From an uncultured Gemmatimonadota bacterium (GTDB lineage Bacteria > JAAXHH01), in assembly GCA_951812955.1 (NCBI GenBank), contig OX638340.1, positions 1,760,001 to 1,824,000 on the forward strand: a stretch of 64,000 nucleotides of DNA, written 5' to 3'. The translations under genes were made by a program, and so were the position numbers. The notes beneath the pieces were generated by a model. The model did no database searches and was not told the DNA's origin. It worked only from the letters and a program-made list of their open reading frames with translations. This document shows, piece after piece, positions 14,929-32,039 of the stretch. The number at the start of each line of letters is the position of its first letter. Position 1 is the stretch's first letter.

Positions 14929-15177
14929 TTGGAGCGTATCGTGCCCAAAGTCAGCGCCAAGCGACAGATAACGCTTCCGGCTGATCAGTGCCGTCTGGTC
15001 GGTATCGAGCCAGGCGACGAGTGCCAGAGTTTCGTGGCCGATGGCCGCATTACCATAGTCCGCCAGGAGCCCGGCAGCGCCTGGGGATGTCTGTCGCATC
15101 TCGAAGGGGATCAGACGGTTTCAGACGAGGAGTCGCGCCAGAACGCCATGGAGAGAAAGCGGGACCAAACGCCTTGA
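14929..15177 (+). CDS. vapB: AbrB/SpoVT-family antitoxin (VapB-like)
   Basis: SAKRQITLPADQCRLVGIEPGDE swapped-hairpin motif. Start more likely GTG at 14941 (GGAGCG RBS) than TTG at 14929. Stop overlaps the PIN gene start (TTGA). Confidence 0.65.
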   Translation: MERIVPKVSAKRQITLPADQCRLVGIEPGDECQSFVADGRITIVRQEPGSAWGCLSHLEGDQTVSDEESRQNAMERKRDQTP

Positions 15178-15575
15178 TCGCAATCGACACCAATGTCCTG
15201 CTGCGCTATCTCCTGAAAGATGATGAGGCGCAGGCTGAACGGGCGCGTAGCGTTATCGAGTGCGGCGAGCGCGTGCTCATTACGGACGTGGTACTGGCGG
15301 AAACGGTATGGACGTTAGCCGGCCGCAGATATCGCGCGAGCCGGACCGATCTGATCGATCTGGTCAACAAACTGCTGCAAGATGCCAACCTGTGCTTTGA
15401 GGATGACGAAGTGGTCTGGAGCGCCCTGCAGGCCTTTCGCAGGACGGAGGCGGACTTCGCCGACGCCCTGATCGTGTGCAAGGCCAGAAAGACGGTCCCC
15501 GCCGGCGACGAGTTGAGCGCGGTTTACACCTTCGATGATACCGCCTTGCAGTTGCCCGGTACCGCAGAGCCGTAG
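15174..15575 (+). CDS. vapC: PIN-domain toxin (VapC-like)
   Basis: TTG start overlapping the vapB stop. LIAIDTNVLLRYLL (first acidic residue of the PIN fold), later TDVVLAE, ~133 aa. Confidence 0.7.
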   Translation: MIAIDTNVLLRYLLKDDEAQAERARSVIECGERVLITDVVLAETVWTLAGRRYRASRTDLIDLVNKLLQDANLCFEDDEVVWSALQAFRRTEADFADALIVCKARKTVPAGDELSAVYTFDDTALQLPGTAEP

Positions 15576-15689: not shown

Positions 15690-17231
15690 GTGAATACTAT
15701 GATTCCAAATGGATGGGCCCATACATCGCTTGAAGCGGTGTGTCAGGTTCTCGATTCTAAGCGTATACCGTTAAATAACAGCGAACGTTCTCGACGTATC
15801 GCTGGTAAGTCCGCTGATGATCTTTACCCCTACTACGGCGCTACAGGTCAAGTCGGTGTAATTGACGATTTTATCTTTGATGGAGAACATGTTTTATTGG
15901 GCGAAGACGGTGCCCCATTTAATGATCCTTTCAAGGTAAAATCTTATCTGGTAGATGGGAAATTCTGGGTCAACAATCATGCTCATATTCTCAAATCAGC
16001 TATCCCAAACAGATATCTATGCCACTATCTCAATCAGATTGACTATTCTGGCTATGTAACAGGAACGACAAGACTGAAGCTTACTCAGACCGCATTAAAG
16101 CGAATTCCTGTTCTTGTTGCTCCCAAAGCCGAACAACACCGCATCGTCGCCAAAATCGAGGAACTGTTTTCCAAACTGGACAAGGGCATTGAGAGCCTGA
16201 AGGCGGCGAGGGCAAAGCTCGATGTCTATCGTCAGGCCGTGCTCAAGCACGCCTTCGAAGGCAAGCTCACGGCCCAGTGGCGCGAAGAGAACAAGGACAA
16301 GCTTGAGACACCCGAGCAATTACTCTCACGCATCAAAAAAGAGCGGGAAGCACGTTATAATAGGCAACTGCAGGAGTGGAAGGACGCCGTCAAGAAATGG
16401 GTGGAAGGCGGTAAGTCAGGAAAGAAGCCGACGAAACCTCCGAAGTTGGAGGAAATACCACACTTATCGATAACCGAAACAGTAACTCTTCCACCCCTCC
16501 CCGCTAATTGGGCTTATTTACACTTGGGGCTTGTGATCGACGAGCCCAAGTACGGTAGTTCGAAGAAATGTAACTACGACTACAAAGGCACAGGGGTTTT
16601 GAGAATACCTAATATCGTCCGAGGTGCAGTCGACACGTCCGATCTCAAAGGGACTCACTTCGAAGAGGACGAGAAACGCGCCTACGGTTTGAGGAGTGGT
16701 GAAATTCTCGTGATCCGATCAAACGGAAGTATCTCCGTAGTAGGTAGGTGCGCTCTAATCTCAAAAGCAGAAGAGCAGTATCTGTACGCTGGTTACCTTA
16801 TCCGCCTACGTAGTAACTTGACCGCGTTGCATCCCGAGTACCTTGTAGCTCTACTGTCAAGCCATCTGTTACGAACTCAAATCGAGCACAAAGCAAAATC
16901 GACTAGCGGTGTCAACAACATAAATTCGGGTGAAATCCAATCGCTCATCGTCCCTTTGTGCAGTCTCAGTGAGCAGGAAATAGTAGTCGAACGACTGTCT
17001 GCAAGTCTATCCTCGATTGACGCTATCAAGGGTGAGATCGACAATCAGCTACTACAAACCGAAGCCCTGCACCAATCCATCCTCAAGAAAGCATTCTCGG
17101 GCCAGCTCGTCCCGCAAGACCCGAATGACGAGCCCGCGTCAATTCTGCTTGAGCGCATCAATGGCGTAAAAGCTGCACTATCTCAAAACAACACACAGAG
17201 AAGACGTAGACACGAGAAGGCAACGGCATGA
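15690..17231 (+). CDS. hsdS: Type I restriction-modification specificity subunit (HsdS), two target-recognition domains
   Basis: Two variable TRDs separated by conserved helical spacers (PKAEQHRIVAKIEELFSKLD and SLSEQEIVVERLSASLSSID) and C-terminal AFSGQL. Lower GC within the TRDs. Confidence 0.9.
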   Translation: MNTMIPNGWAHTSLEAVCQVLDSKRIPLNNSERSRRIAGKSADDLYPYYGATGQVGVIDDFIFDGEHVLLGEDGAPFNDPFKVKSYLVDGKFWVNNHAHILKSAIPNRYLCHYLNQIDYSGYVTGTTRLKLTQTALKRIPVLVAPKAEQHRIVAKIEELFSKLDKGIESLKAARAKLDVYRQAVLKHAFEGKLTAQWREENKDKLETPEQLLSRIKKEREARYNRQLQEWKDAVKKWVEGGKSGKKPTKPPKLEEIPHLSITETVTLPPLPANWAYLHLGLVIDEPKYGSSKKCNYDYKGTGVLRIPNIVRGAVDTSDLKGTHFEEDEKRAYGLRSGEILVIRSNGSISVVGRCALISKAEEQYLYAGYLIRLRSNLTALHPEYLVALLSSHLLRTQIEHKAKSTSGVNNINSGEIQSLIVPLCSLSEQEIVVERLSASLSSIDAIKGEIDNQLLQTEALHQSILKKAFSGQLVPQDPNDEPASILLERINGVKAALSQNNTQRRRRHEKATA

Positions 17232-17983
17232 CCGGCAAACTTGCCATCAACATCGATAACCTGCTGCGCCAGCGTGCCATCGAAGAGGCGCTGGTGAACG
17301 CCATCGACCATCGCTCATACGAGGAGCGGGAGCCGGTTGAAGTTCGGATCACCCGCGATGAGTTGCTGGTCCTGAGTTATCCCGGGGCGGACCGCTCCAT
17401 CCGTATGGACGACTTCAAGCAGGGGCAGGCCGTGAGCAGGCGCTACCGGAACCGGCGAATTGGTGAGTTTCTGAAGGAACTCGACCTCGCCGAGGCCTGC
17501 TCAACCGGGGTGCCGAAGATTTTCACGGCCATGCAGCAGAACGGCTCACCGGAACCCATCTTCGAAAGCGACGAGAACCGGACCTGGTTTCGCGTGCGCC
17601 TGCCGGTGCATGAACGGGCATTACTTGCCACGACCGACCAGGATACCATACATGATACCCAACATGATAACTCATTGATAAATAAAAGGAAAAGTCACGG
17701 TACCCAACACGGTACCCAACATGATACCCAACATGATATCGACCAAGTCGAGCAACTGGTGGCTGTGCTCACTGGAGAGATGAGCCGAGCTAGTATCCAG
17801 GCAGGATTGGAACTCAAAGATCGGCCCCATTTCATCGAATCGTATCTAAAGCCTGCCCTGGAGGCCAAGTTGATTGAAATGACCCTCCCGGACAAACCCA
17901 CCAGTCGCCACCAGCGCTATCGCCTAACTGCCGCTGGAAAGGCTTTAGCTGAGCAAATCAAACGAGAGAACACCGCCAAATGA
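17228..17983 (+). CDS. HATPase_c_4 (RecG-like C-terminal / Schlafen-like ATPase core) plus C-terminal winged-HTH protein, lacking the usual N-terminal AlbA_2 domain
   Basis: VNAIDHRSYEEREPVEVRITRDELLVLSYPGA...SRRYRNRRIGEFLKELDLAEACSTGVPKIFTAMQQNGSPEPIFESDENRTWFRVRLP matches the HATPase_c_4 pattern. 4-bp overlap with hsdS stop and hsdM start. Internal TQHD low-complexity repeats (17641-17738). Confidence 0.6.
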   Translation: MTGKLAINIDNLLRQRAIEEALVNAIDHRSYEEREPVEVRITRDELLVLSYPGADRSIRMDDFKQGQAVSRRYRNRRIGEFLKELDLAEACSTGVPKIFTAMQQNGSPEPIFESDENRTWFRVRLPVHERALLATTDQDTIHDTQHDNSLINKRKSHGTQHGTQHDTQHDIDQVEQLVAVLTGEMSRASIQAGLELKDRPHFIESYLKPALEAKLIEMTLPDKPTSRHQRYRLTAAGKALAEQIKRENTAK

Positions 17984-19467
17984 ACACCGCTCCCATCGTA
18001 TCCAAAGTCTGGAGTTTCTGCAACACCCTGCGCGACGACGGGGTGAGCTATGGCGATTACCTGGAACAACTCACCTATCTGATATTTCTGAAGATGGCAG
18101 ACGAGTACGCCAAACCGCCGTACAGTCGGGACGTCGGCATCCCGGTCGAATTCAACTGGCAGAGCCTGAGATCGAAGAACGGCGCGGAACTCGAAGGCCA
18201 CTACGTCGCGCTGCTTCGAGCCTTCGGCACCAGGACGGGCATGCTGGGCCAAGTCTTTACCAGGGCCCAGAACAAGATCCAGGATCCGGCAAAGCTGTTC
18301 CGCCTCATCGCCATGGTGGACGACACCGAATGGGTCACCATGGGCGCCGACATAAAAGGGGATATCTACGAAGGGCTCCTGGAGAAGAACGCCGAAGATA
18401 CCAAGACCGGCGCGGGCCAGTATTTCACGCCGCGTGCTCTCATCCGGGCCATGGTCGAGTGCGTACGGCCCGAACCGGGAATGCTCATCGCTGACCCGGC
18501 CTGCGGTACGGGCGGTTTCTTTCTCGCTGCATACGACTTCATCACCAACCAGGACAATTTCAGGTTAGACAAGGATCAAAAAGCGTTCCTGAAACACGAG
18601 GCGTTTCACGGCAATGAAATCGTCCCCAATACACGCCGTCTTTGCCTGATGAACATGTTCCTGCACAATATCGGTGAAATCGACGGCGGCGTCCCGATAT
18701 CGCCCAACGACGCGCTGGTGGCCGATGCCGGCAAGCGTTACGACTATGTGCTGGCGAATCCGCCCTTCGGCAAGAAAAGTTCCATGAGTTTCACGAACGA
18801 GGAAGGCGAACAGGAAACCGACGACCTGACCTACAACCGGCAGGATTTCTGGGCGACGACCTCGAACAAACAGCTGAATTTCGTGCAGCACATCCGCACG
18901 ATGCTCAAGACCACCGGCCGCGCTGCTGTCGTCGTTCCCGACAATGTACTGTTCGAAGGCGGGGCCGGTGAGACGATCCGCAAAAAGCTGCTGGACAACA
19001 CGGACTTGCACACCATCCTGCGCCTGCCGACGGGCGTGTTCTACGCGCAGGGCGTCAAGGCCAATGTGATCTTCTTCGACAATCACGAAGCCAGCCCGAA
19101 TCCCTGGACGAAGCAGGTCTGGTACTACGACTACCGCACCAATATCCACCATACGCTGAAGAAGAAACCACTGCGCTTCGAGGACCTGTCGGATTTCATC
19201 AACTGCTACAACCCGCAGAATCGCCACCAGCGCAAGGCGACCTGGGACGAAAACGATGCACCGGAAGGCCGTTGGAGGAGTTACAGCTACGAGGAGATAA
19301 TCGCGCGCGACAAGACCAGTCTCGACATCTTCTGGCTCAAGGACAAAAGCCTGACGGACCTGGACAACCTGCCCGAACCTGATGACCTTGCCGAAGAGAT
19401 CATAGAGAACCTGGAGGCAGGTCTCAACAGCTTTCGCGAGGTGCTGGCTGGATTGGGGAGGCAGTAG
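17980..19467 (+). CDS. hsdM: Type I restriction-modification DNA methyltransferase subunit (HsdM), N6-adenine
   Basis: Motif I DPACGTGGFFL, motif IV NPPFG, N-terminal HsdM_N-like region, 495 aa. Confidence 0.92.
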   Translation: MNTAPIVSKVWSFCNTLRDDGVSYGDYLEQLTYLIFLKMADEYAKPPYSRDVGIPVEFNWQSLRSKNGAELEGHYVALLRAFGTRTGMLGQVFTRAQNKIQDPAKLFRLIAMVDDTEWVTMGADIKGDIYEGLLEKNAEDTKTGAGQYFTPRALIRAMVECVRPEPGMLIADPACGTGGFFLAAYDFITNQDNFRLDKDQKAFLKHEAFHGNEIVPNTRRLCLMNMFLHNIGEIDGGVPISPNDALVADAGKRYDYVLANPPFGKKSSMSFTNEEGEQETDDLTYNRQDFWATTSNKQLNFVQHIRTMLKTTGRAAVVVPDNVLFEGGAGETIRKKLLDNTDLHTILRLPTGVFYAQGVKANVIFFDNHEASPNPWTKQVWYYDYRTNIHHTLKKKPLRFEDLSDFINCYNPQNRHQRKATWDENDAPEGRWRSYSYEEIIARDKTSLDIFWLKDKSLTDLDNLPEPDDLAEEIIENLEAGLNSFREVLAGLGRQ

Positions 19468-19608
19468 GCGGTAGATGAACTTGTTAGGGACTCACTTACC
19501 GCGTATTACGATTATGTTCCGTTTATTTTCACTGTATTGAAGTTACTCCGAAAAACCAGTTAGGTTCGATTCATTTTCCATCGCAAGTATGTAAATCACT
19601 GAATTACT

Positions 19609-21777
19609 ATGAATAGTAACTGCAAAACTGAAGTTCGATCCGAATCTGAAATAGTCACCGATTTAGAGAGTTTGAGCCAGGAAAAAGGGTACATCTATTC
19701 CTTCTGTCGAATGGTTGATGAATACCTGTGGTTGAAACCCAGCGAACCCGAAATCCCTGATTGGCACAGTCAATTAAACATACGTGAGTTAACTTTCTTA
19801 TTAGGGTTAATGGTCAAGTATCAATTGACCATATCTGATTCTCCGACTGAACGGGAGTCTGACCTACATATCGATAAGACCAATGAGTTGTTTCATGAAC
19901 TTCATCAAACTCATGCTTTTCCGAAAACAAAGGAAGTAAACGCCGCCCAAGTGAACTTAGAAGATTGGGAATCGGGGTTGAAAAACACCTATACCGACTG
20001 GATCAAAAGCGGTAAAGGTATCGTCGAGCCGGTTTTTTATGGTGAAGAAGGTGCATACGATTTCCAGTTCCTCAAAATGGCAGCATGGAGGTACAAACTT
20101 GATAATCAGTGGATAAAGTCGAACATAGGTATGGATGTTGATACTTTAACTGATATCGCAGGTAAGATTAAACGACTTACCGAATATCGCGCCAATGATG
20201 TAACCAGGACGTCAGACTTCAGAGATTCATGCTTTCGGTTGATATCAGTCTTCTTAATTAAGCCAGATGGCGTTCCTGGCGCTAATAGAGAAGAAATCGA
20301 AGTCTTTCTTGAAACCTTTTCTGTTGAACCACGGGACGGAGTTAATCAGAACCTTAACACGATTGGTGAATACAACACGGCAGACTCGCACCCCATTATT
20401 AAGATTAACAATGAACTTTATTTCATTCCCATCTACTACAACCTAGCAAAATCCATCTACGAGAACCCCTTCTACTGGATTCTCAAAGACAGTGATTACA
20501 GACAAACAGGACTTCAGAACAGGGGTGATGTTACAGAAGAAATAGTATTCGAACTGTTACGACGAGTTTTTGGTATAGACAACGTTTTTCGCAGGGTAAA
20601 AATAAAACGTGGAAACAGAGACATAACGGATATCGACGTTCTTGCAGTATGTGGGAGTAAAGCTGTCATTGTACAGGTGAAATCTAAGAGACTTACGGTG
20701 CTGTCGAAAGGTGGTGATGGCAAGAGCATAGAGAAGGATTTCAAACAAGCTGTTCAGGATGCTTACACCCAAGCGTTATTGTCGAGAAACTTCCTGCTAG
20801 AGACAGATGAAACACTGACGGTTAATGAAGAAAGGCTAATGCAGGTCAAAGGGAACATCGATGATGCCTATATAATCTGCGCTACTGGTGATCATTATCC
20901 TGCAATTACTATTCAGACAAAGTCATACCTCAAAAAGAAGGCAACCGACCCTTACCCAGTTGTACTAAGCGTTTTTGACCTTGATACTATATCGTTTTAC
21001 CTCAGAGAACCGTATGATTTCATATACTACGTTCGTCAACGCACTATACATGCGGGTCACTTCGAGGCTGATTCAGAAATGGCCTTTCTTGGTTTTCATC
21101 TAAACAAAAAACTATTTCCCACAGATGGATATGATATCACGATTATCCCACAATATTATGCATATCTCATCGATATTAGTTTTCCAGTCCTAAAGGGTGA
21201 GCATCCTATTTCGGATGCAGCATACAAGGTATTCCACAAGTGGAAAAACAACGATTTTGATGAGCTAGTTAATGAAATCAAAGTTAGAAATACCGGTCAT
21301 CCACAACTGACAGATTTGATTTTCTTTTTGTTCGATTTAGCAGGATCAGTAGCCGACAAGATTTTCGAAATCTTCGGCGAAATCAAACGAACCACTCGTG
21401 GTGACCTAAAGCCTCACGATGCTACAATTCCAATAGACCAAGCCGGGAAAGGTATAACACTGTTCTGCTACCCTTCGACGTTAGAACTTAGTGAGACAAT
21501 AATCCAAGATCAGTTTCGAGGCTTTGCAGCTGCTCGGAAATACAAAAGCAAAGCTAATGAATGGTTAGCGCTCGCATCATCCGCACAAAGTTCAAATCTG
21601 TTTGACTGTCTCTGGTATAGTAAAGAAGTATGGTGTTATGATGAGAGTTTCGAGCGTCTATCAAAACACATGATTAAACAAGGACATCCCATTCGTACTG
21701 ACGGACGGAAAATAGGTAGAAATTCACCCTGCCCTTGTGGAAGTGGATTGAAGTTTAAAAAGTGCCACGGAAAATAA
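19609..21777 (+). CDS. Large hypothetical protein with a NERD-like PD-(D/E)xK nuclease core and C-terminal SEC-C zinc-binding motif; candidate defence nuclease
   Basis: 722 aa, very AT-rich. Central EEIVFELLRRVFG...RDITDIDVLAVCGSKAVIVQVKSKR fits E...D-x-D...Q-x-K as in the NERD consensus (EIDHIVI...GIFVIETKN). The extreme C-terminus NSPCPCGSGLKFKKCHGK is a SEC-C motif. Confidence 0.5.
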   Translation: MNSNCKTEVRSESEIVTDLESLSQEKGYIYSFCRMVDEYLWLKPSEPEIPDWHSQLNIRELTFLLGLMVKYQLTISDSPTERESDLHIDKTNELFHELHQTHAFPKTKEVNAAQVNLEDWESGLKNTYTDWIKSGKGIVEPVFYGEEGAYDFQFLKMAAWRYKLDNQWIKSNIGMDVDTLTDIAGKIKRLTEYRANDVTRTSDFRDSCFRLISVFLIKPDGVPGANREEIEVFLETFSVEPRDGVNQNLNTIGEYNTADSHPIIKINNELYFIPIYYNLAKSIYENPFYWILKDSDYRQTGLQNRGDVTEEIVFELLRRVFGIDNVFRRVKIKRGNRDITDIDVLAVCGSKAVIVQVKSKRLTVLSKGGDGKSIEKDFKQAVQDAYTQALLSRNFLLETDETLTVNEERLMQVKGNIDDAYIICATGDHYPAITIQTKSYLKKKATDPYPVVLSVFDLDTISFYLREPYDFIYYVRQRTIHAGHFEADSEMAFLGFHLNKKLFPTDGYDITIIPQYYAYLIDISFPVLKGEHPISDAAYKVFHKWKNNDFDELVNEIKVRNTGHPQLTDLIFFLFDLAGSVADKIFEIFGEIKRTTRGDLKPHDATIPIDQAGKGITLFCYPSTLELSETIIQDQFRGFAAARKYKSKANEWLALASSAQSSNLFDCLWYSKEVWCYDESFERLSKHMIKQGHPIRTDGRKIGRNSPCPCGSGLKFKKCHGK

Positions 21778-21847
21778 CATCCGATCCTGAAACTTGATCT
21801 TGCAAGGGTCTGTCACGGAAAGGTTCGGTCATAGAGTATTAAGCTTA

Positions 21848-22918
21848 TTATTCTTCTTGTTCTTCGGGATATGGGAGGACTGGGGCTGTTGTCCAGCCTT
21901 CACGTTCAGGTGAATTATGTCCTGTACATATAGTTCTGCCCTCTGTCGAAACTACTTTCGCCCCACGGTGTATACAAGCCCGAATAACTGCTTTTCTAGG
22001 GTGATCCTCGTCTTCTTTAGACGCACTTATAATTGCGTTAAAATGTTCGTTTCCCTCTTCTTGCTTCTCTGGCAGTCGCTTACCCAGCAATCTGTCAAGT
22101 ATCTCCGTTGATAAATTGCGTCGTGATCCGTGGTGCGGGACCTGAAAATGGTCAATTCCTGGAAGTGTCAGTCCTACTGATGGCGCATAATCCAGTGCCT
22201 CGGTAAGTGCACCTCGTCCTGCATCCGCAGTCAGTAATACCTTTTTCTCGCAAAGATTAGCATACTGGATCACACTCATCTCATTTTCAAAGCTAGTTTC
22301 TTCCGGTGAAAACGTTTCTTCACCCCATGCAGATCTTATAAACGAAACAACACTTTTTACGAAAGCACGTCCATGTCCTAACAATGATTGAGCTGTCCCT
22401 TCCGGAGTTCTATCGGATTCAACAATGAGATTCAGATACCTTTCTTTTGATGGTGCAAGGACCGTGAACTCTCCGATTTGTTCTCCTTGAAATGGTGCCA
22501 ATATCGGTATCTCTCGTGCCTTAGCAATCTCTTCAAGTTCGGCAATGTTTGGGTATATTTCCTTTAGCCTACGAACCAGATTCTCCACATTTGTAAAACG
22601 AGCAAACCGGTCAATTAACTCATCTGCATATAGCCATGGTCGTAACATCCACAACTCTGAGACGCTAAATGCTTCGAGGACTTTTCGTAGCCCGCCTGTA
22701 TGGTCGCCATCGGAATGACTGGCTATAACGGCATCAATCGTGCTAGGGTCATCATAATACTTTTTGATATGCTCAATTACAATGTCTCCAGAATCCTGAA
22801 ATCCTCCATCAGTTACGTGAACTCTCTTGACACCAGCTATGGAATACCGAAGTGGTATTGCATCCCCGCTCTTGCTTGACTTTACGTCAAGGAAATCAAT
22901 TTCAAAAAAGTATGACAT
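21848..22918 (-). CDS. MBL-fold metallo-hydrolase, ComEC-like lactamase domain
   Basis: ASHSDGDHTGG (HxHxDH metal-binding motif). N-terminus FFEIDFLDVKSSKSGDAI resembles the start of the ComEC/Rec2 lactamase domain (FLDVGQGDA). Later HFQVPHHGS. AT-rich. Confidence 0.6.
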   Translation of the reverse strand: MSYFFEIDFLDVKSSKSGDAIPLRYSIAGVKRVHVTDGGFQDSGDIVIEHIKKYYDDPSTIDAVIASHSDGDHTGGLRKVLEAFSVSELWMLRPWLYADELIDRFARFTNVENLVRRLKEIYPNIAELEEIAKAREIPILAPFQGEQIGEFTVLAPSKERYLNLIVESDRTPEGTAQSLLGHGRAFVKSVVSFIRSAWGEETFSPEETSFENEMSVIQYANLCEKKVLLTADAGRGALTEALDYAPSVGLTLPGIDHFQVPHHGSRRNLSTEILDRLLGKRLPEKQEEGNEHFNAIISASKEDEDHPRKAVIRACIHRGAKVVSTEGRTICTGHNSPEREGWTTAPVLPYPEEQEE

Positions 22919-22921
22919 ATG

Positions 22922-23422
22922 CTACTCTTGCTCCTTGATTTTAGCGTTTCTTACGCGCTTAGCTACATATTGAGTCTGTTTTCTATAAGAGAATAAAAAT
23001 ATCAACAATAACCCCGCCAAAATTATTAAAACTATTTCATCATCACTTATAGACCACAAATGCTTCAACTCGTCAAAGATTTTGAGGAAAACTAACACAA
23101 TCACTAGCGAACTCAGCGTACGATACATGTTGTTCTGTTCTGACAAGACCTCGATCTTTGAATCCACTTCTACTGCTTCCAGATAATCCTTGTAGTCTGC
23201 GAACCGAACAAATTTGATCTTTTTGAGTAGGGGTTCCAATATCAACGATCCAATCCTGCTAATGACCAACCCTGCCATGTAGTATATAAACACTCCTATG
23301 ATCCAGTCCTTATGGACTAATGAAAATGAGGTGATTTGTTCTCCCAGACCAGCAAATAGAACTCCAGGAAGTAGATAGTTAAAAATGTTATATGACGACA
23401 GCTTTTCAATTACAGTTTTCAT
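22922..23422 (-). CDS. Small hydrophobic membrane protein (about 4 TM segments), translationally coupled to the MBL gene
   Basis: Hydrophobic stretches (IFNYLLPGVLFAGL; WIIGVFIYYMAGLVISRIGSLIL; LSSLVIVLVFLKIF; IVLIILAGLLLIFLF). Stop is 3 bp from the MBL gene start. Confidence 0.5.
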   Translation of the reverse strand: MKTVIEKLSSYNIFNYLLPGVLFAGLGEQITSFSLVHKDWIIGVFIYYMAGLVISRIGSLILEPLLKKIKFVRFADYKDYLEAVEVDSKIEVLSEQNNMYRTLSSLVIVLVFLKIFDELKHLWSISDDEIVLIILAGLLLIFLFSYRKQTQYVAKRVRNAKIKEQE

Positions 23423-24268
23423 CAGGTTTGCCTTTTTGTTTTATTGCCTAAAACATCCTCCATAACAACAAAATCTAATGTACACAACTAATCGTCGTAC
23501 TAGCTAGTAAGTGAAACTTCCACTCCTATCCTGCTTTAAAATGGTATGTCAACACCAGAAGTGATTTTTGTACAGCACCTAATTGGGTAGTGATATGTTT
23601 TTAAATCTCGTTGAATGTAACCCTAATGTATCGACAAATCCCGATTATTTACAAGTAATTAACCCGTAGATTGCCTCTTTAAACAGATTGACATGGGAGG
23701 TTCTACATGGTAACCTGAACACGTCAACGATTCCAATTCGGCTCGAGCCGGGTATTCTGCTGAATATAGAACCCACAAAGGTAGATTTGCAAAACCTCCC
23801 GCAATCTTTAGGTGGAGCGTTGACACTGCCCGTCACCAACAAACAGATTGGTGCTAAAGCTGGGGTTCGCCATGAGGGTTTTCGGTACCATAGTACTGTG
23901 GGTGTTAGCACTGTAGGAACTTAGATGTTCATAGTTGCCATGTTTTATTCCAATTCGGTTTCCTAGGAGCTAGAGCAGGACAATCTCGATTTAGTAGCAA
24001 AGGAACATCAGGTCTCTGTTTTGGAGAATACCCTTGAGAAGTTGAGGGCTCAAACCAACTTGGTGGATGAACTGACGGCCGTTCAGATAGAAAACATCAA
24101 ACTGATGGATAAGTTGATCAAAGCGAACAACGACTAGATTAATATGGTAAACAAGCATTTCATAAAGCATAGGTACCGTCCCATTGACCGGGGAGGGTTA
24201 GATTGCAACTAAGTCTTAGGATTGGTCGCCAGAGACTGAACGGTTCGGTGCCCTGATTGCGTGGTTGA

Positions 24269-24400
24269 ATGGTCAAGTTCGAGGAAATTGACAAGCAGTT
24301 CGACCGGGTGGATGTACCACTGGACGTGCTGGTGCTGAACATGCGTGAACTCAGAACCGATGTGACAGATGGTCTTAGAAAACACGCAATAGAAAGATAG
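24269..24400 (+). CDS. Small hypothetical ORF (43 aa)
   Basis: MVKFEEIDKQFDRVDVPLDVLVLNMRELRTDVTDGLRKHAIER; weak RBS; first of a same-strand series of short ORFs. Confidence 0.2.
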   Translation: MVKFEEIDKQFDRVDVPLDVLVLNMRELRTDVTDGLRKHAIER

Positions 24401-24413
24401 GAGGGAGTGAAGA

Positions 24414-24566
24414 ATGGAAAATGACGGACAACTGGAACAGATTATCGAACTGTTGATGGACTTAAATTCCCACATGGCAGACCTTAAAGAACTCATCAAG
24501 GTTTCAAACAATCAACTGGATATCATCAAAAGTTACTTGGACAGCATAGATCGTAATTCAGCATAG
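24414..24566 (+). CDS. Small hypothetical protein (50 aa), helical
   Basis: AGGAGGGAG RBS 6 nt upstream. MENDGQLEQIIELLMDLNSHMADLKELIKVSNNQLDIIKSYLDSIDRNSA. Confidence 0.3.
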   Translation: MENDGQLEQIIELLMDLNSHMADLKELIKVSNNQLDIIKSYLDSIDRNSA

Positions 24567-24574
24567 GAGTCAAT

Positions 24575-24751
24575 ATGTCGTTGGGAGGATATACGTATAT
24601 AGCGGACACTGAGACATTGAAATCAAACTACGAGTTATTGCAGAAAAGCCTTATTCAACTTATCAACGAGACGAATAGTGCTGAAATAATGCTCAAGGCG
24701 ATTTCGTTAATGATCGAACTAGATTCCACCTATACCAAGGGAAATAGGTGA
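24575..24751 (+). CDS. Small hypothetical protein (58 aa)
   Basis: AGGAG RBS. MSLGGYTYIADTETLKSNYELLQKSLIQLINETNSAEIMLKAISLMIELDSTYTKGNR. Starts 9 nt after the previous stop. Confidence 0.3.
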   Translation: MSLGGYTYIADTETLKSNYELLQKSLIQLINETNSAEIMLKAISLMIELDSTYTKGNR

Positions 24752-24761
24752 AGGGGTCTTT

Positions 24762-24878
24762 ATGCCCACAGGACCGAAGGGCGAGAAGCGGCCTCGTGAC
24801 TTCGTCGGATCGGTCATTACAGTCGGCAAGATCACCACTGGTTTAATAGAAGAGACCAGAGTAAGCCCTGCCAAGTAA
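24762..24878 (+). CDS. Small hypothetical ORF (38 aa)
   Basis: GAAGGGG RBS. MPTGPKGEKRPRDFVGSVITVGKITTGLIEETRVSPAK. Confidence 0.2.
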   Translation: MPTGPKGEKRPRDFVGSVITVGKITTGLIEETRVSPAK

Positions 24879-24995
24879 AATGCCGGAACTAGGCCAGGTC
24901 GATACGACTGACCGCGTCATGCCGGACCGAGATCGGCTGGTATGCCGGCGAATGTGCGGTGGGGAGGTCAAAGTACCAGATAGCGGAGGATTGAC

Positions 24996-25151
24996 ATGAA
25001 GCAACTGGAGCAGAAGGATATTAAGATCGCATTGGATAGGCTCAATGCCGAAATAGAACAAAAGCAACGCACGGTGGACCATTATCAAGGTGAATTGGAT
25101 AGCCTTAAAAACGTTGCGGAGCTTTTGGAGTCTCTTCTGGGATCACAGTAA
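24996..25151 (+). CDS. Small hypothetical protein (51 aa), coiled-coil-like
   Basis: GGAGGA RBS. MKQLEQKDIKIALDRLNAEIEQKQRTVDHYQGELDSLKNVAELLESLLGSQ. Confidence 0.3.
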   Translation: MKQLEQKDIKIALDRLNAEIEQKQRTVDHYQGELDSLKNVAELLESLLGSQ

Positions 25152-25453
25152 ACTGATACTGGTGGAAGTCAGTATGGATTTTGGAAGAATTTAAGATCGT
25201 ACTCGAAATCGTAAGGACATTGCTTGGCCCATGATTGAAAGGAGGTCATGATGGACAGGTACAAAGGAATGTATCCGATTCCAATAAATAGAGAAATCAT
25301 TGAGACCAAGAGGAAGCATTGGGAAGTCCTTCTATAAGCAGACCGAGTTCTCGAACAGGCTTCCAAGCAAATTGGTCTCGACACGTCCGAAGAAACATAT
25401 TAAAAATAAGAGAAATGCTTAACACAACGGGTTGGTTTCGTTATACTTAGTAT

Positions 25454-26191
25454 ATGAAAAGGATCATCCGAGACAAGCTACTGTTAATGCTGAACATGCT
25501 GTTAGAAGTGTCTTCGATAAGTTCTATCGCTAGGATCGTCGGGGTCAACTACATCACCGTTCAGAAACTCATGCTGGATTCCGTTCAGGTGTGCAAAATC
25601 TTCCACCATAAAACCGTAATGGATGAAGACGCCAAGCAAATACAATGCGACAAATATGGAACTTCGTTTAGAACAAGGTCCAATGCGGTCTGGACGTAGA
25701 CGGCCATCCGGCAAGACACCAAGTTTATTCTGGCTTTCAAGGACGGAGACAGAACCAACGAAACCGCCAAGACGCTATTCGACGATCTGATGACGCGGCT
25801 GCGAAACAAGATGTGGATCCGGACGGACAGGCTTCCTTCCTACTCAGGGGCGATATGGGACTCGTTTTTCGTGTCTGCCACACATCAATTAGCGGGCGCC
25901 GCCGCAGTCTAATACTCCAACATAGAGCGCCAGAATCTCAACATGCACATGGGAGTGTGAAGGTACACCCGAGCGACCGATGCGTTCTCTAAGAAGATCG
26001 ACTATCTATACAACCTGCTCTCATTGTACTTCGTCTTCTACAACTTTATCCGAAAGCATCTGCTACTTGGCATGACTCTCGCTCAGGGAATCGGCCTTTC
26101 TGGTGAAACCCGCGACCTGGGTAAGATACTTGATGTGGTGGACGAAGCAGCCCCACTTCCGAACAGGCCGAAGACGTACAGAAAGTGCTAG
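25454..26191 (+). mobile_element. Decayed IS1-family transposase (InsA-like HTH ORF plus frameshifted InsB-like C-terminal fragments), IS remnant
   Basis: 25454..25699 encodes an InsA-like HTH (SISSIARIVGVNYITVQKLM, cf. IS1 InsA ...ATARIMGVGLNTILRHL). Downstream frames give ...KTLFDDLMTRLRNKMWIRTDRLPSYSGAI... and ...ERQNLNMHMGV*RYTRATDAFSKKIDYLYNLLSLYFVFYNFIRKHLLLGMTLAQG..., the conserved IS1-family transposase C-terminus. Reading frame is broken by stops and shifts. Confidence 0.6.
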
Positions 26192-26235
26192 GAACATCAT
26201 TCATTCTTTTGTCACAAGGAGTATTCACTGTGGAT

Positions 26236-26550
26236 ATGCGTAAACTTACGGTTAAAATATCTGATCCCAATGAGGAAGATTCATCGGGGTTTTTAGTTGA
26301 GGCTGTACCGATTGGGGCAAGCCTCGTCTTGACATCAGTAGGATACATCAGATTGAGGGCAGTGAGTGAAAGAACGGATGTATACGGTCTCGCTATTTTG
26401 GAGTTAATTCCTTCTGCAAAGTTGAATGGCTTGTATTACAGGATCAATATCTCTGACGGTAGCGCGAGTTACTCACGCTTTATCATAATGCCGAACGAAG
26501 ACGTCAATCTGCATGATTTAATGTTGTATGAAGAGATGCCGGAAGGCTGA
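26236..26550 (+). CDS. Hypothetical protein (about 104 aa)
   Basis: ORF 26185..26550, probably starting at ATG 26236 or GTG 26230 behind an AAGGAG RBS. No recognisable family. Confidence 0.3.
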   Translation: MRKLTVKISDPNEEDSSGFLVEAVPIGASLVLTSVGYIRLRAVSERTDVYGLAILELIPSAKLNGLYYRINISDGSASYSRFIIMPNEDVNLHDLMLYEEMPEG

Positions 26551-26756
26551 AGGCTAAATTACCGATAACATACAATCCTTAGTACTACCTTAATTGAATG
26601 ATAGCGGTACCTAGAGTTGCTTGTAATCGGGCTCTCACAATCTCGTTTAAAAATTGGTCAACAATCAATGTGCTCTTAACACAGTGCAATTATACACCGC
26701 ACGTTCATCGAGAAACCACATTACTTGATACAACCTCGACTACACGATAAGGCTTT

Positions 26757-30179: not shown

Positions 30180-32039
30180 ATGCCTTCACCCTGGGAACGA
30201 ATCGAAGAGAAGATTTACCGATTTCAGGATAGCTGCATCGTTTACGCCGTCGAGGGCACGGAAGGCGTCGTGCTCGTAAACGCCGGTACGGGCCTGGCCG
30301 CGGACCATCTCGACGAAATCGCACGGGGCAGGCCGGTAACGGTACTCCTCACCCATCATTTCCGGGACCACACGGACGGCGCCATTCGGCTCCATGGAAA
30401 GGGAGCGCGGATACTCGGTCCGTACTGGGACCAGGAGTACCTCGTCGATCCCGAACAGCACTTCAGGGAACGCCAGCAATGGAACTCGTACGACAACCGG
30501 TGGGACCGCTTCTCGCCCGTCCGGCCCGTGCCCGTCGACGCCTGGATGATGGATTGTGAAACGCGCGATATCGCGGGGCGGTTGTGGGAGGTCGTACCCA
30601 CGCCGGGTATGACCAACGGCGCGAGCAGCTACATGGTCACAGTCGATGGCAGGCGAATTGGATTTGTCGGCGAGGTGATCTGCGGGACCGGGAAGACGAC
30701 CCGGCTGGCACCGCTGCAGTACAACTACAACGACTACACGGGGGCATGGAATCTGTACCACGCGGCCAATCGGCTGCTCGAGACGGGGGCGGACCGGCTG
30801 CTCCCGAGCCTGGGAGATCCGGTGGATGATCCGGCCACCGCCATCGCGGCCTTCAAGGCCAACCTCCGGCGCCTCGAAGAGATTTCTCCCGGGGTGGCAG
30901 GACCACTGGAAGATCCGGACGAGGACGATATCGAAGAAGTGCTGCCCCACCTGTACCGGTCGAAATACGCCGGCGCGGAGACCCATTTCGTGCTGAGCGA
31001 CACGGGCAAGATCATGTCCATCGACTACGGCTACAACCTGAAGACCGGTTTCCAGCCAGGTAAATCCCACGTATCCAATCGCCGCCCGATCCTGCACGGT
31101 ATCAGCGGGCTCAGGAAGCGCTTCGGGATCGACCGAATCGACGCGACACTCGTCTCCCATTTCCACGACGACCACGTCAACGGGATCCCTATGCTCCAGC
31201 GTCTCTACGGGACGGAAGTCCTGGCGGGCGAACAGTTCAGCGACCTGCTCGTAAACCCGGTCAAGTACGACCGGCCCTGCCTCTGGCACGAGCCCATCAA
31301 CGTGTCGCGGCACATCCCCAACGAAACGACGGTCCACTGGGAGAACATCCCCATCACGCTGTATCCCATGTCCGGCCATACCCGCTTCGCCACGATGATC
31401 TGCATGGAGATCGACGGTACGCGCGTGGTCCACACCGGCGACCAGGCCTTCTTCGACGCGGAGGGTGGGGTGGGCTACCAGCCCGGCGCGCGCATGTTCA
31501 CCAACCACGTGTACAAGAATGGTCTCGACCTCGGATGCTACAAAAGTTTCCTGGAGGACCTCAAACGGTTCGAGCCGGAACTGGTCATCACGGGTCACAC
31601 CCGGCCGTACCGCACGTCCCCCGAATGGTACGCGGAGATCAACCGTGCCGCGGAAGCCTTTGACGATGTGCACCGCACGCTCATGCTGCTGGAAGACGAC
31701 GAGGCTCATTTCGGCGCCGAGTCCCAGGGCGGCAAGCTGGTTCCCTACCGCGTCCACGCGCCGGAGGGCGGCCCCATCGAATTTAGCGGTTGGGTACTCA
31801 ATCCGTTCCCGACGGAACAACCGGCGCGCATACGACTCGTGGGTCCTGAAGGCTGGCAGAGCGAGACGGTCACACTGTCCCTGGGTCCGCGGGAACAGAA
31901 GGATATACACCTCGTGCTGCACGTTCCTGAAGGTACCCGGTGCCGGCGGCAACCCGTGGCGCTGAACCTGACCGTAGGGGGCCGGCCCTTCGGGCAGGTG
32001 ACCGAAGCCCTGGTGACGGTGGGCATGCCGAAGTGGTGA
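30180..32039 (+). CDS. MBL-fold metallo-hydrolase with two tandem MBL domains
   Basis: Two His-cluster metal motifs, LLTHHFRDHTDG and LVSHFHDDHVNG; 619 aa. Confidence 0.7.
   Translation: MPSPWERIEEKIYRFQDSCIVYAVEGTEGVVLVNAGTGLAADHLDEIARGRPVTVLLTHHFRDHTDGAIRLHGKGARILGPYWDQEYLVDPEQHFRERQQWNSYDNRWDRFSPVRPVPVDAWMMDCETRDIAGRLWEVVPTPGMTNGASSYMVTVDGRRIGFVGEVICGTGKTTRLAPLQYNYNDYTGAWNLYHAANRLLETGADRLLPSLGDPVDDPATAIAAFKANLRRLEEISPGVAGPLEDPDEDDIEEVLPHLYRSKYAGAETHFVLSDTGKIMSIDYGYNLKTGFQPGKSHVSNRRPILHGISGLRKRFGIDRIDATLVSHFHDDHVNGIPMLQRLYGTEVLAGEQFSDLLVNPVKYDRPCLWHEPINVSRHIPNETTVHWENIPITLYPMSGHTRFATMICMEIDGTRVVHTGDQAFFDAEGGVGYQPGARMFTNHVYKNGLDLGCYKSFLEDLKRFEPELVITGHTRPYRTSPEWYAEINRAAEAFDDVHRTLMLLEDDEAHFGAESQGGKLVPYRVHAPEGGPIEFSGWVLNPFPTEQPARIRLVGPEGWQSETVTLSLGPREQKDIHLVLHVPEGTRCRRQPVALNLTVGGRPFGQVTEALVTVGMPKW

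Follow-up and report, generated by a model that had tools for sequence, protein, structure and literature searches.

Whether two adjoining genes of an uncultured Gemmatimonadota bacterium form a new anti-phage system, and how such a pair could act, is the question raised by the locus analysed here. The genes lie on the minus strand between positions 21848 and 23422 of a 64,000-nucleotide stretch of contig OX638340.1, which as a whole we call the window; one encodes a protein of metallo-beta-lactamase (MBL) fold and the other a small membrane protein. The initial annotation saw in them a possible DNA-degrading module held at the membrane, and supposed that it had not been described as a defence system. 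Judging from profile matches, the pair is a member of PDC-M48, a candidate anti-phage system already present in PADLOC-DB v2, and we refer to the membrane protein as M48A and to the MBL as M48B.

The M48A gene (166 amino acids (aa), 22922..23422, minus strand) is the first of the pair and the M48B gene (356 aa, 21848..22918, minus strand) the second; the limits assigned earlier to both open reading frames (ORFs) proved exact. M48B matches the PADLOC model PDC-M48B (PDLC04676) with an E-value of 2.6e-166, residues 1-356 falling on profile positions 1-357 of 357, and M48A matches PDC-M48A (PDLC04670) with an E-value of 9e-63, residues 1-162 on positions 1-162 of 164. Because these hidden Markov model (HMM) matches are full-length and both proteins have thousands of homologues, the ORFs are not chance frames. 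The PDC set consists of 145 computational candidates derived from genes that sit inside BREX, DISARM and type I restriction-modification (RM) systems ("guilt-by-embedding"; Payne et al., bioRxiv 10.1101/2024.01.29.577857); in the supplementary table of the same study PDC-M48 is cassette CAS_00157, FAM_01875>>FAM_00178, with a count of 63, and another cassette combines the same MBL family with a different upstream partner. The order in the window, M48A and then M48B on one strand, is that of the PDC-M48 cassette. The supposition that the pair was undescribed therefore does not hold: it is listed as PDC-M48 in PADLOC-DB v2, as CAS_00157 by Payne et al. and as cargo of the P2 hotspot by Rousset et al., although as a candidate only.

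At the junction of the two genes (22916..22936, minus strand) an AAGGAG Shine-Dalgarno sequence (22936-22931) lies inside the 3' end of the M48A gene, 12 nt upstream of the M48B ATG (22918-22916), and 3 nt separate that ATG from the M48A stop codon TAG (22924-22922). This layout is compatible with translational coupling. The gap of 3 nt had been reported correctly, but the order of the genes had not: read in the direction of coding, M48A precedes M48B. Of 29 complete pairs taken from other genomes, 18 have an identical 3-nt spacer, and in five more the genes overlap. Promoter and terminator sites were not more frequent in our scan than in shuffles. The GC content of the pair region is 0.40-0.43 against 0.55-0.64 for the host, in agreement with the low GC previously ascribed to both genes.

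We then asked what M48B is. In Pfam it matches Lactamase_B alone (1.6e-8). Its AlphaFold2 (AF2) model is confident (predicted local distance difference test, pLDDT, 89.2; predicted TM-score, pTM, 0.89), the only low-confidence stretch being residues 181-196, predicted to be disordered, while residues 94-134 are modelled as three confident helices and not as a loop. The best fold match in the PDB is the beta-lactamase-like domain of ComEC, 9ic4 (Foldseek E-value 3.8e-14, TM-score 0.73 on the target), followed by the phosphorylcholine esterase Pce/CbpE (E-value 1.5e-10) and by beta-CASP nucleases. Among solved structures, ComEC domains are also the sole sequence matches with an E-value below 0.01: 9ic4 is found at 1.4e-4 with the single sequence and at 1.3e-5 with a profile of 58 sequences, and 30bt matches as well. 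The blocks FxDVxxGDAI, sHxDxDHxGGL and VPHHGSR are common to M48B and ComEC. Thus the proposed ComEC-type fold was recovered by sequence and structure comparison alike, and the N-terminus of M48B does align to ComEC as had been suggested, and so does its HHGS motif. What had been read as an HxHxDH signature (ASHSDGDHTGG) is instead H68-x-D70-x-D72-H73, that is HxDxDH, the variant shared with ComEC (sTHPDADHIGGL in 9ic4 and 30bt). Some homologues of M48B are in fact annotated as "competence protein ComEC" (P0088).

The metal-binding and catalytic set of M48B comprises D37, H68, D70, D72, H73, N212, S215, D232, H262 and H263. In an alignment with highly divergent partner MBLs, down to 14-23% identity, all of these residues are invariant except H68, which is kept in at least 90% of the sequences. 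Profiles of defence MBLs in PADLOC also recognise M48B (LmuA-MBL 2.6e-18, RTasMBL 9.5e-14, Avs1a 3e-8). The MBLs of HamMAB (HamM), AVAST type 1, Lamassu and DRT are ComEC-like, DNA-specific, latent nucleases released by a protease; those tested showed no beta-lactamase, RNase or choline-esterase activity. In such zymogens two inserted loops block the active site and contain the cleavage sites, and the inhibitory loop of the protease-activated MBL is located at 184-203 (Tuck et al. 2025, Huang et al. 2025, PMC12642450). The long-form MBLs, M48B included, carry an insertion at about residues 170-210, which coincides in M48B with the disordered stretch 181-196 and with the published position of the inhibitory loop; short forms and the MBL enzyme of the 6A-MBL system do not have it. 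The alignment of M48B (15-278) with LmuA-MBL (10-279) is colinear across this insertion. The C-terminus of M48B is acidic and conserved (PYPEEQEE), and a ratio of nonsynonymous to synonymous substitutions (dN/dS) of 0.17 against the syntenic relative L062 indicates purifying selection. As no signal peptide is present, the protein is presumably cytoplasmic. On the strength of its fold, its catalytic residues and its tested homologues, we regard M48B as a soluble ComEC-type MBL-fold hydrolase and a probable DNase, so that the DNA-degrading role previously proposed becomes plausible by analogy with homologues of demonstrated DNase activity.

The match to Pce/CbpE, second best by fold, raises a reading in which the pair does not serve immunity at all. 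Mobile elements could use it as a module for addiction or competition, or it could be a membrane-associated phosphodiesterase with a substrate other than nucleic acid, for example lipid head groups or choline-phosphate, like Pce and NAPE-PLD. It fits this reading that the pair travels on plasmids, prophages and islands, and that its assignment to defence comes from genomic association alone. However, by sequence M48B stands much nearer to defence MBLs and ComEC than to Pce, those relatives that were tested are DNA-specific and negative on choline-ester, beta-lactam and RNA substrates, and the pair shows links to RM systems, 6A-MBL and the P2 hotspot. We consider a role outside immunity very unlikely.

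M48A has four long hydrophobic transmembrane helices at about residues 13-30, 40-64, 101-120 and 130-146 (AF2 pLDDT 88.6), as the first description of a four-helix membrane protein implied. Residues 65-100 are predicted to form a helical cytoplasmic loop, and the topology predicted from charges has both N- and C-terminus inside. M48A is thus predicted to be an inner-membrane protein with its conserved surface toward the cytoplasm: conserved residues cluster on the side predicted to be cytoplasmic, and the loop that points outward (121-129) is hypervariable. The motif GLxxSRxGS in the second helix is invariant or nearly so, S55, S59 and K148 are invariant and located at the cytoplasmic membrane interface, and the C-terminal tail is basic, with a mean net charge of +3.45. 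Purifying selection is indicated here too (dN/dS 0.18 against L062). No family of Pfam or NCBIfam scores above threshold with M48A, neither collection gave a ComEC match to its 166 residues, and a fold search against the PDB returned no structural relative. A possible assignment to the Pfam family 8xMP was dropped, the score being 19 bits against a cutoff of 30 and the literature giving just unrelated PDB codes.

Whether the two genes are a unit was evaluated from both sides. Starting from the MBL, we surveyed 61 genomes of many phyla (MBL identity 52-87%). A homologue of M48A lies directly upstream of the MBL in 36 of them, a second (187-256 aa) or a third (156 aa) polytopic family takes that place in eight, and a further eight (L039 and L051-L057) have a downstream gene for a protein with two transmembrane helices, an insert and two more helices, so that some small four-helix partner, from at least four families, is present in 52 of the 61. 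Starting from M48A, we searched 80 metagenome loci with a profile for an MBL and found one immediately beside M48A in 69 (downstream in 55, upstream in 10, and on both sides in 4), the remaining loci being mostly cut by a contig end or having an MBL nearby. With lengths of 259-386 aa, these adjacent MBLs are spread over very different subfamilies. The M48A and M48B distance matrices proved congruent (Mantel r = 0.72, a value reached in 0 of 2000 permutations). The dedicated membrane partner suggested by the initial annotation therefore stands up to comparison, and two observations go beyond the catalogue entry: the MBL swaps among at least four membrane-partner families, and M48A keeps company with the MBL superfamily even within 6A-MBL operons. 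M48A itself forms about 1,160 clusters at 50% identity, from many phyla, plasmids and P2-like phages.

Several details of these surveys concern the partners. The downstream proteins of L051-L057 (Acetobacteraceae, Rhizobiales) and L039 are 215-277 aa long, with a soluble insert between the two helix pairs; these MBLs have no upstream partner, and the downstream gene overlaps the MBL stop by 1-4 nt except in L056, where a 2-nt gap is found. L039 has an additional, tandem second MBL. The alternative four-helix families have no match in PADLOC or Pfam, and iterative HMM searches did not recruit the upstream ones as remote homologues of M48A; we thus treat them as separate families. In L001 (6354-9065) an MBL stands on each side of M48A, a short one of 302 aa of the PDLC04673 type upstream and a long one of 357 aa downstream, and L090 (2946-5394) has the reverse arrangement. 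No remnant of a third, short MBL gene was found in the window, which has the long form alone.

From these data a membrane-controlled latent DNase is the mechanism that we consider most likely for the pair, with a probability of roughly 45%. M48B, of one superfamily with the latent MBL nucleases of Hachiman, AVAST, Lamassu, DRT and 6A-MBL, would be a cytoplasmic ComEC-type DNase with a binuclear metal centre. M48A would bind to it and keep the nuclease silent at the membrane; this inhibition would be aided by the insertion (about 170-210), whose position is that of the published auto-inhibitory loop. A change of the membrane induced by the phage (DNA injection, depolarisation or envelope stress) would release or activate M48B, which would then degrade DNA, probably that of the host as well as that of the phage, and lead to abortive infection. 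We infer the DNase activity from homologues, and the physical binding, the membrane trigger and the outcome likewise belong to the model. The conservation of the cytoplasm-facing surface of M48A, together with the co-inheritance of the two proteins, suggests a direct partnership, while latency is suggested by the insertion that M48B has in common with zymogen-type MBLs.

The same features can be read as the initial annotation did, that is with a constitutively active M48B anchored by M48A, which degrades DNA at its entry, sparing host DNA by spatial separation and giving direct immunity. The fold and motifs of M48B are ComEC-type, and ComEC is, according to Silale et al. 2021 as cited in the papers on protease-activated MBLs, a membrane-coupled nuclease acting on incoming DNA. 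Generic anchoring would also fit the interchange of unrelated four-helix partners, and the basic tail of M48A faces the acidic C-terminus of M48B. However, without a signal peptide M48B would be cytoplasmic, whereas the nuclease domain of ComEC is thought to act outside the membrane. Moreover, the closest functional relatives are tightly auto-inhibited and lethal once released, M48B retains the insertion at the position of the inhibitory loop, and a passive anchor would leave the strongly conserved polar motifs on the cytoplasmic side of M48A unexplained. M48B could be tethered, and could degrade DNA at the membrane, but this particular gatekeeping arrangement seems unlikely to us.

Several points weigh against the latent DNase that we prefer. 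A full-text literature search retrieved no paper naming PDC-M48 and no experimental test of it, and in two studies of other PDC candidates, PDC-M48 not being included, four of eight worked in one and none of two in the other. Small transmembrane proteins of known systems are mostly effectors and not sensors (Rousset et al.). No membrane partner could be recognised in about 15% of the MBL loci, including those on Azospirillum and Acinetobacter plasmids, and fusions of M48A with an MBL were absent from the top 150 representatives. M48A also has short-form MBLs as partners, which do not carry the insertion at about 170-210, so the role of M48A cannot depend on it. Finally, no protease domain was found among the scanned genes of the island.

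The wider distribution of the family was also considered. The 133 flanking ORFs of 47 other loci include four type I and four type III methyltransferases and six extra defence-type MBLs, and in L040 PD-Lambda-1 is a direct neighbour. We found relatives of the MBL on 44 plasmids and on 36 IMG/VR contigs, in the latter often with small transmembrane partners. In Escherichia phage D8 (L182, OM475426.1 29200-30788) and related Peduovirus, the hotspot beside gpA holds an M48B-like MBL (361 aa, 34.6% identity) and, tail-to-tail with the MBL gene, a true homologue of M48A (162 aa, E-value 2e-47). Such an arrangement in P2-like phages of E. coli, 11W also among them, shows that the co-occurrence of the two genes is independent of translational coupling. 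The P2 hotspot tables list this kind of cargo as "hypothetical + Lactamase_B", and the main text does not mention an MBL (Rousset et al.). On the Acinetobacter baumannii plasmid pOXA58_005078 (L180, NZ_CP027245.2 13196-17757) a WYL regulator and an MBL of 397 aa are joined by a "ThiF family" protein of 751 aa, which is E2-E1-JAB-like, and by an M48B-like MBL of 53.6% identity, with no membrane ORF in the locus. On the Acinetobacter plasmids a 6A-like pair thus accompanies the M48B-like MBL in the place of a transmembrane gene; an M48B-like MBL with the identical value of 53.6% is found on at least 12 Acinetobacter plasmids.

The presence of M48A beside 6A-MBL deserves attention. In five metagenome loci (L075, L079, L087, L095 and L105) the gene directly upstream of M48A encodes an E2-E1-JAB fusion (cap2_3), which in L075, L079 and L087, the three compared with NCBIfam, scores about 610 bits against a cutoff of 320 of the NCBIfam model "6A-MBL cap2_3". 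In L087 (524-4471) and L105 (410-4483) M48A directly follows a bona fide 6A-MBL system and no second MBL is present; as a positive control, the 6A-MBL enzyme of L087 (524-1717) scored 374 bits against the NF058524 cutoff of 220. In L075 and L079 the order is cap2_3, M48A and MBL, the MBL of L079 being 65% identical to that of the window. M48A may be an unrecognised accessory gene of 6A-MBL, a ubiquitin-like system cited as a jumbo-phage defence of P. aeruginosa. A more general proposal is that M48A and its analogues represent a second, protease-independent control of the ComEC-like nuclease, M48A being at the same time an accessory component of some 6A-MBL systems. The small four-helix protein would take over the switch from the protease-sensor fusion and tie release of the nuclease directly to an event that the phage causes at the membrane; in its extreme version M48A would be a tiny intramembrane serine hydrolase that clips the loop of the MBL. 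We find this proposal possible but somewhat unlikely.

The layout MBL, cap2_3 and M48A in L087 and L105 bears on yet another reading, since it mirrors that of type II CBASS (conjugated enzyme, Cap2/Cap3, transmembrane effector). The roles could be reversed, with M48A as the effector, oligomerising into a pore or depolarising the membrane, and the MBL as a sensor or activator that might recognise or process phage DNA or a nucleotide-derived signal. Small transmembrane effectors are indeed reported for CBASS, Pycsar, retron and P2/P4 hotspot systems by Rousset et al., and the near-invariance of the GLxxSRxGS motif also speaks for this reading. However M48A does not resemble known pore-formers, the MBL acts as the killing nuclease in all characterised relatives, and its catalytic residues are strictly kept. 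Furthermore, at least four unrelated transmembrane families replace M48A and some loci have two MBLs around one M48A, so that the constant functional core would be the MBL. This exchange of roles appears to us quite unlikely, and the latent DNase under membrane control remains the reading that we prefer.

Around the pair, the window contains hsdR, a PIN toxin, hsdS, an embedded gene with Fic-like_C and HATPase domains, hsdM and a NERD/SEC-C gene, followed by the convergent M48 pair, so that the position in a defence island, formerly recognised, is correct: the type I RM system, the PIN toxin and the NERD gene adjoin the pair. Between hsdR and hsdS, at 14929-15575 of the plus strand, the PIN-domain ORF is overlapped by a small ORF upstream of it (82 aa, without a Pfam match); the two probably form a VapBC-like toxin-antitoxin pair inserted in the RM system. 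The gene of 251 aa with HATPase_c_4 and Fic-like_C (17228-17983, plus strand) lies between hsdS and hsdM, overlapping each by 4 nt; being embedded in a type I RM system, it has the signature by which PDC candidates were nominated, and in L062 it is split into two ORFs. The NERD protein with a C-terminal SEC-C motif (722 aa, 19609-21777, plus strand, convergent with the pair) was considered as a conserved third gene and rejected. It was seen in the syntenic relatives L062 and L063 alone, frameshifted near residue 299 in both; as no other M48 locus has it, it does not belong to the system. A second MBL of the window (619 aa, 30180-32039, plus strand), with a C-terminal Lactamase_B domain at residues 312-473, is divergent beside a gene resembling topoisomerase IV subunit A and is essentially unrelated to M48B (profile search E-value 0.0014).

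Comparison with L062 also informs on the history of this region. The block from hsdS/hsdM through the NERD gene to M48A (17713-23428) is 93.4% identical to L062, against about 85% for the flanking core genes (topoIV-like, xthA), and the synonymous divergence (dS) is about 0.2 for the island genes and 0.74 for xthA; these differences indicate that the block was exchanged recently. Between xthA and M48A (23.4-26.8 kb) no alignment to L062 is possible; an intact IS3-type insertion element is present there in L062, and the stretch looks like a recombination or integration hotspot. The "phage-like small ORFs" reported next to the pair could not be verified, as 23423-26750 has no nucleotide match to phages and aligns with this IS3-bearing variable stretch. 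The best explanation is that the pair, as a candidate system against phages and plasmids, is carried in a horizontally exchanged low-GC defence block.

For the window itself the result is mainly a correct annotation and not a discovery. The interest of the family is wider. Few killing modules of bacterial immunity have turned out to be reused as widely as the ComEC-like MBL nuclease, which has so far been understood as a protease-activated zymogen alone, while PDC-M48 is a common two-gene form in which the protease is replaced by a dedicated membrane protein. Knowledge of its control mechanism would tell whether membrane sensing is a general alternative trigger, and would explain the presence of M48A in 6A-MBL operons. 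The versions found in P2-like phages of E. coli and on Acinetobacter plasmids are tractable and directly testable, which again goes beyond the catalogue entry.

It remains to place the pair among known systems. With PDC-M48 it has in common the full-length matches of both proteins, the gene order and the type I RM neighbour; there is no structural difference, although the window pair stands beside its RM system and is not embedded within it. With the protease-activated MBLs M48B shares the ComEC-like superfamily, the catalytic motifs and an insertion located roughly where their inhibitory loop lies. However no gene for a trypsin-like protease-sensor adjoins it in the window, its neighbours being M48A and the NERD/SEC-C gene, and its partner is a four-helix protein of 166 aa, whereas a membrane partner is not mentioned in Tuck et al. 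2025, Huang et al. 2025 and PMC12642450. As for AVAST type 1, M48B scores 38.8 bits against the Avs1a equivalog cutoff of 420. The 6A-MBL system consists of the E2-E1-JAB protein cap2_3 and an MBL, operon type 6a (Iyer et al. 2006; NCBIfam NF058523, NF058524). Its MBL is of the same superfamily as M48B, and homologues of M48A occur in or after some of its operons, but the window has no cap2_3 gene and M48B reaches 20.4 bits against the NF058524 cutoff of 220.

ComEC/Rec2 (9ic4, 30bt) shares with M48B the HxDxDH and PHHGS motifs and the fold. M48B, in contrast, is a stand-alone protein, not fused to the channel or OB domains of ComEC, it has about 65 extra residues between conserved blocks, and its membrane partner is a separate, unrelated four-helix protein; against TIGR00361 it scores 27.8 bits with a cutoff of 190, residues 61-91 alone being matched. 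M48B is therefore not a ComEC, and the likeness is at the level of the domain. The last comparison is with Kiwa, in which KwaA, a four-helix sensor, perceives the membrane disturbance induced by the phage and KwaB is a DNA-binding effector (PMC11785009). There is no homology between the two systems, as M48A has neither a PADLOC KwaA match nor a fold match; KwaA has a cytoplasmic beta-barrel whereas M48A is all-helical, and KwaB, a DNA binder with DUF4868, is no nuclease. The two systems are nonetheless alike in architecture and in proposed logic, each combining a small membrane protein of four helices with a cytoplasmic DNA-targeting partner, and the sensor of Kiwa thus provides a precedent for membrane sensing coupled to a partner that targets DNA.

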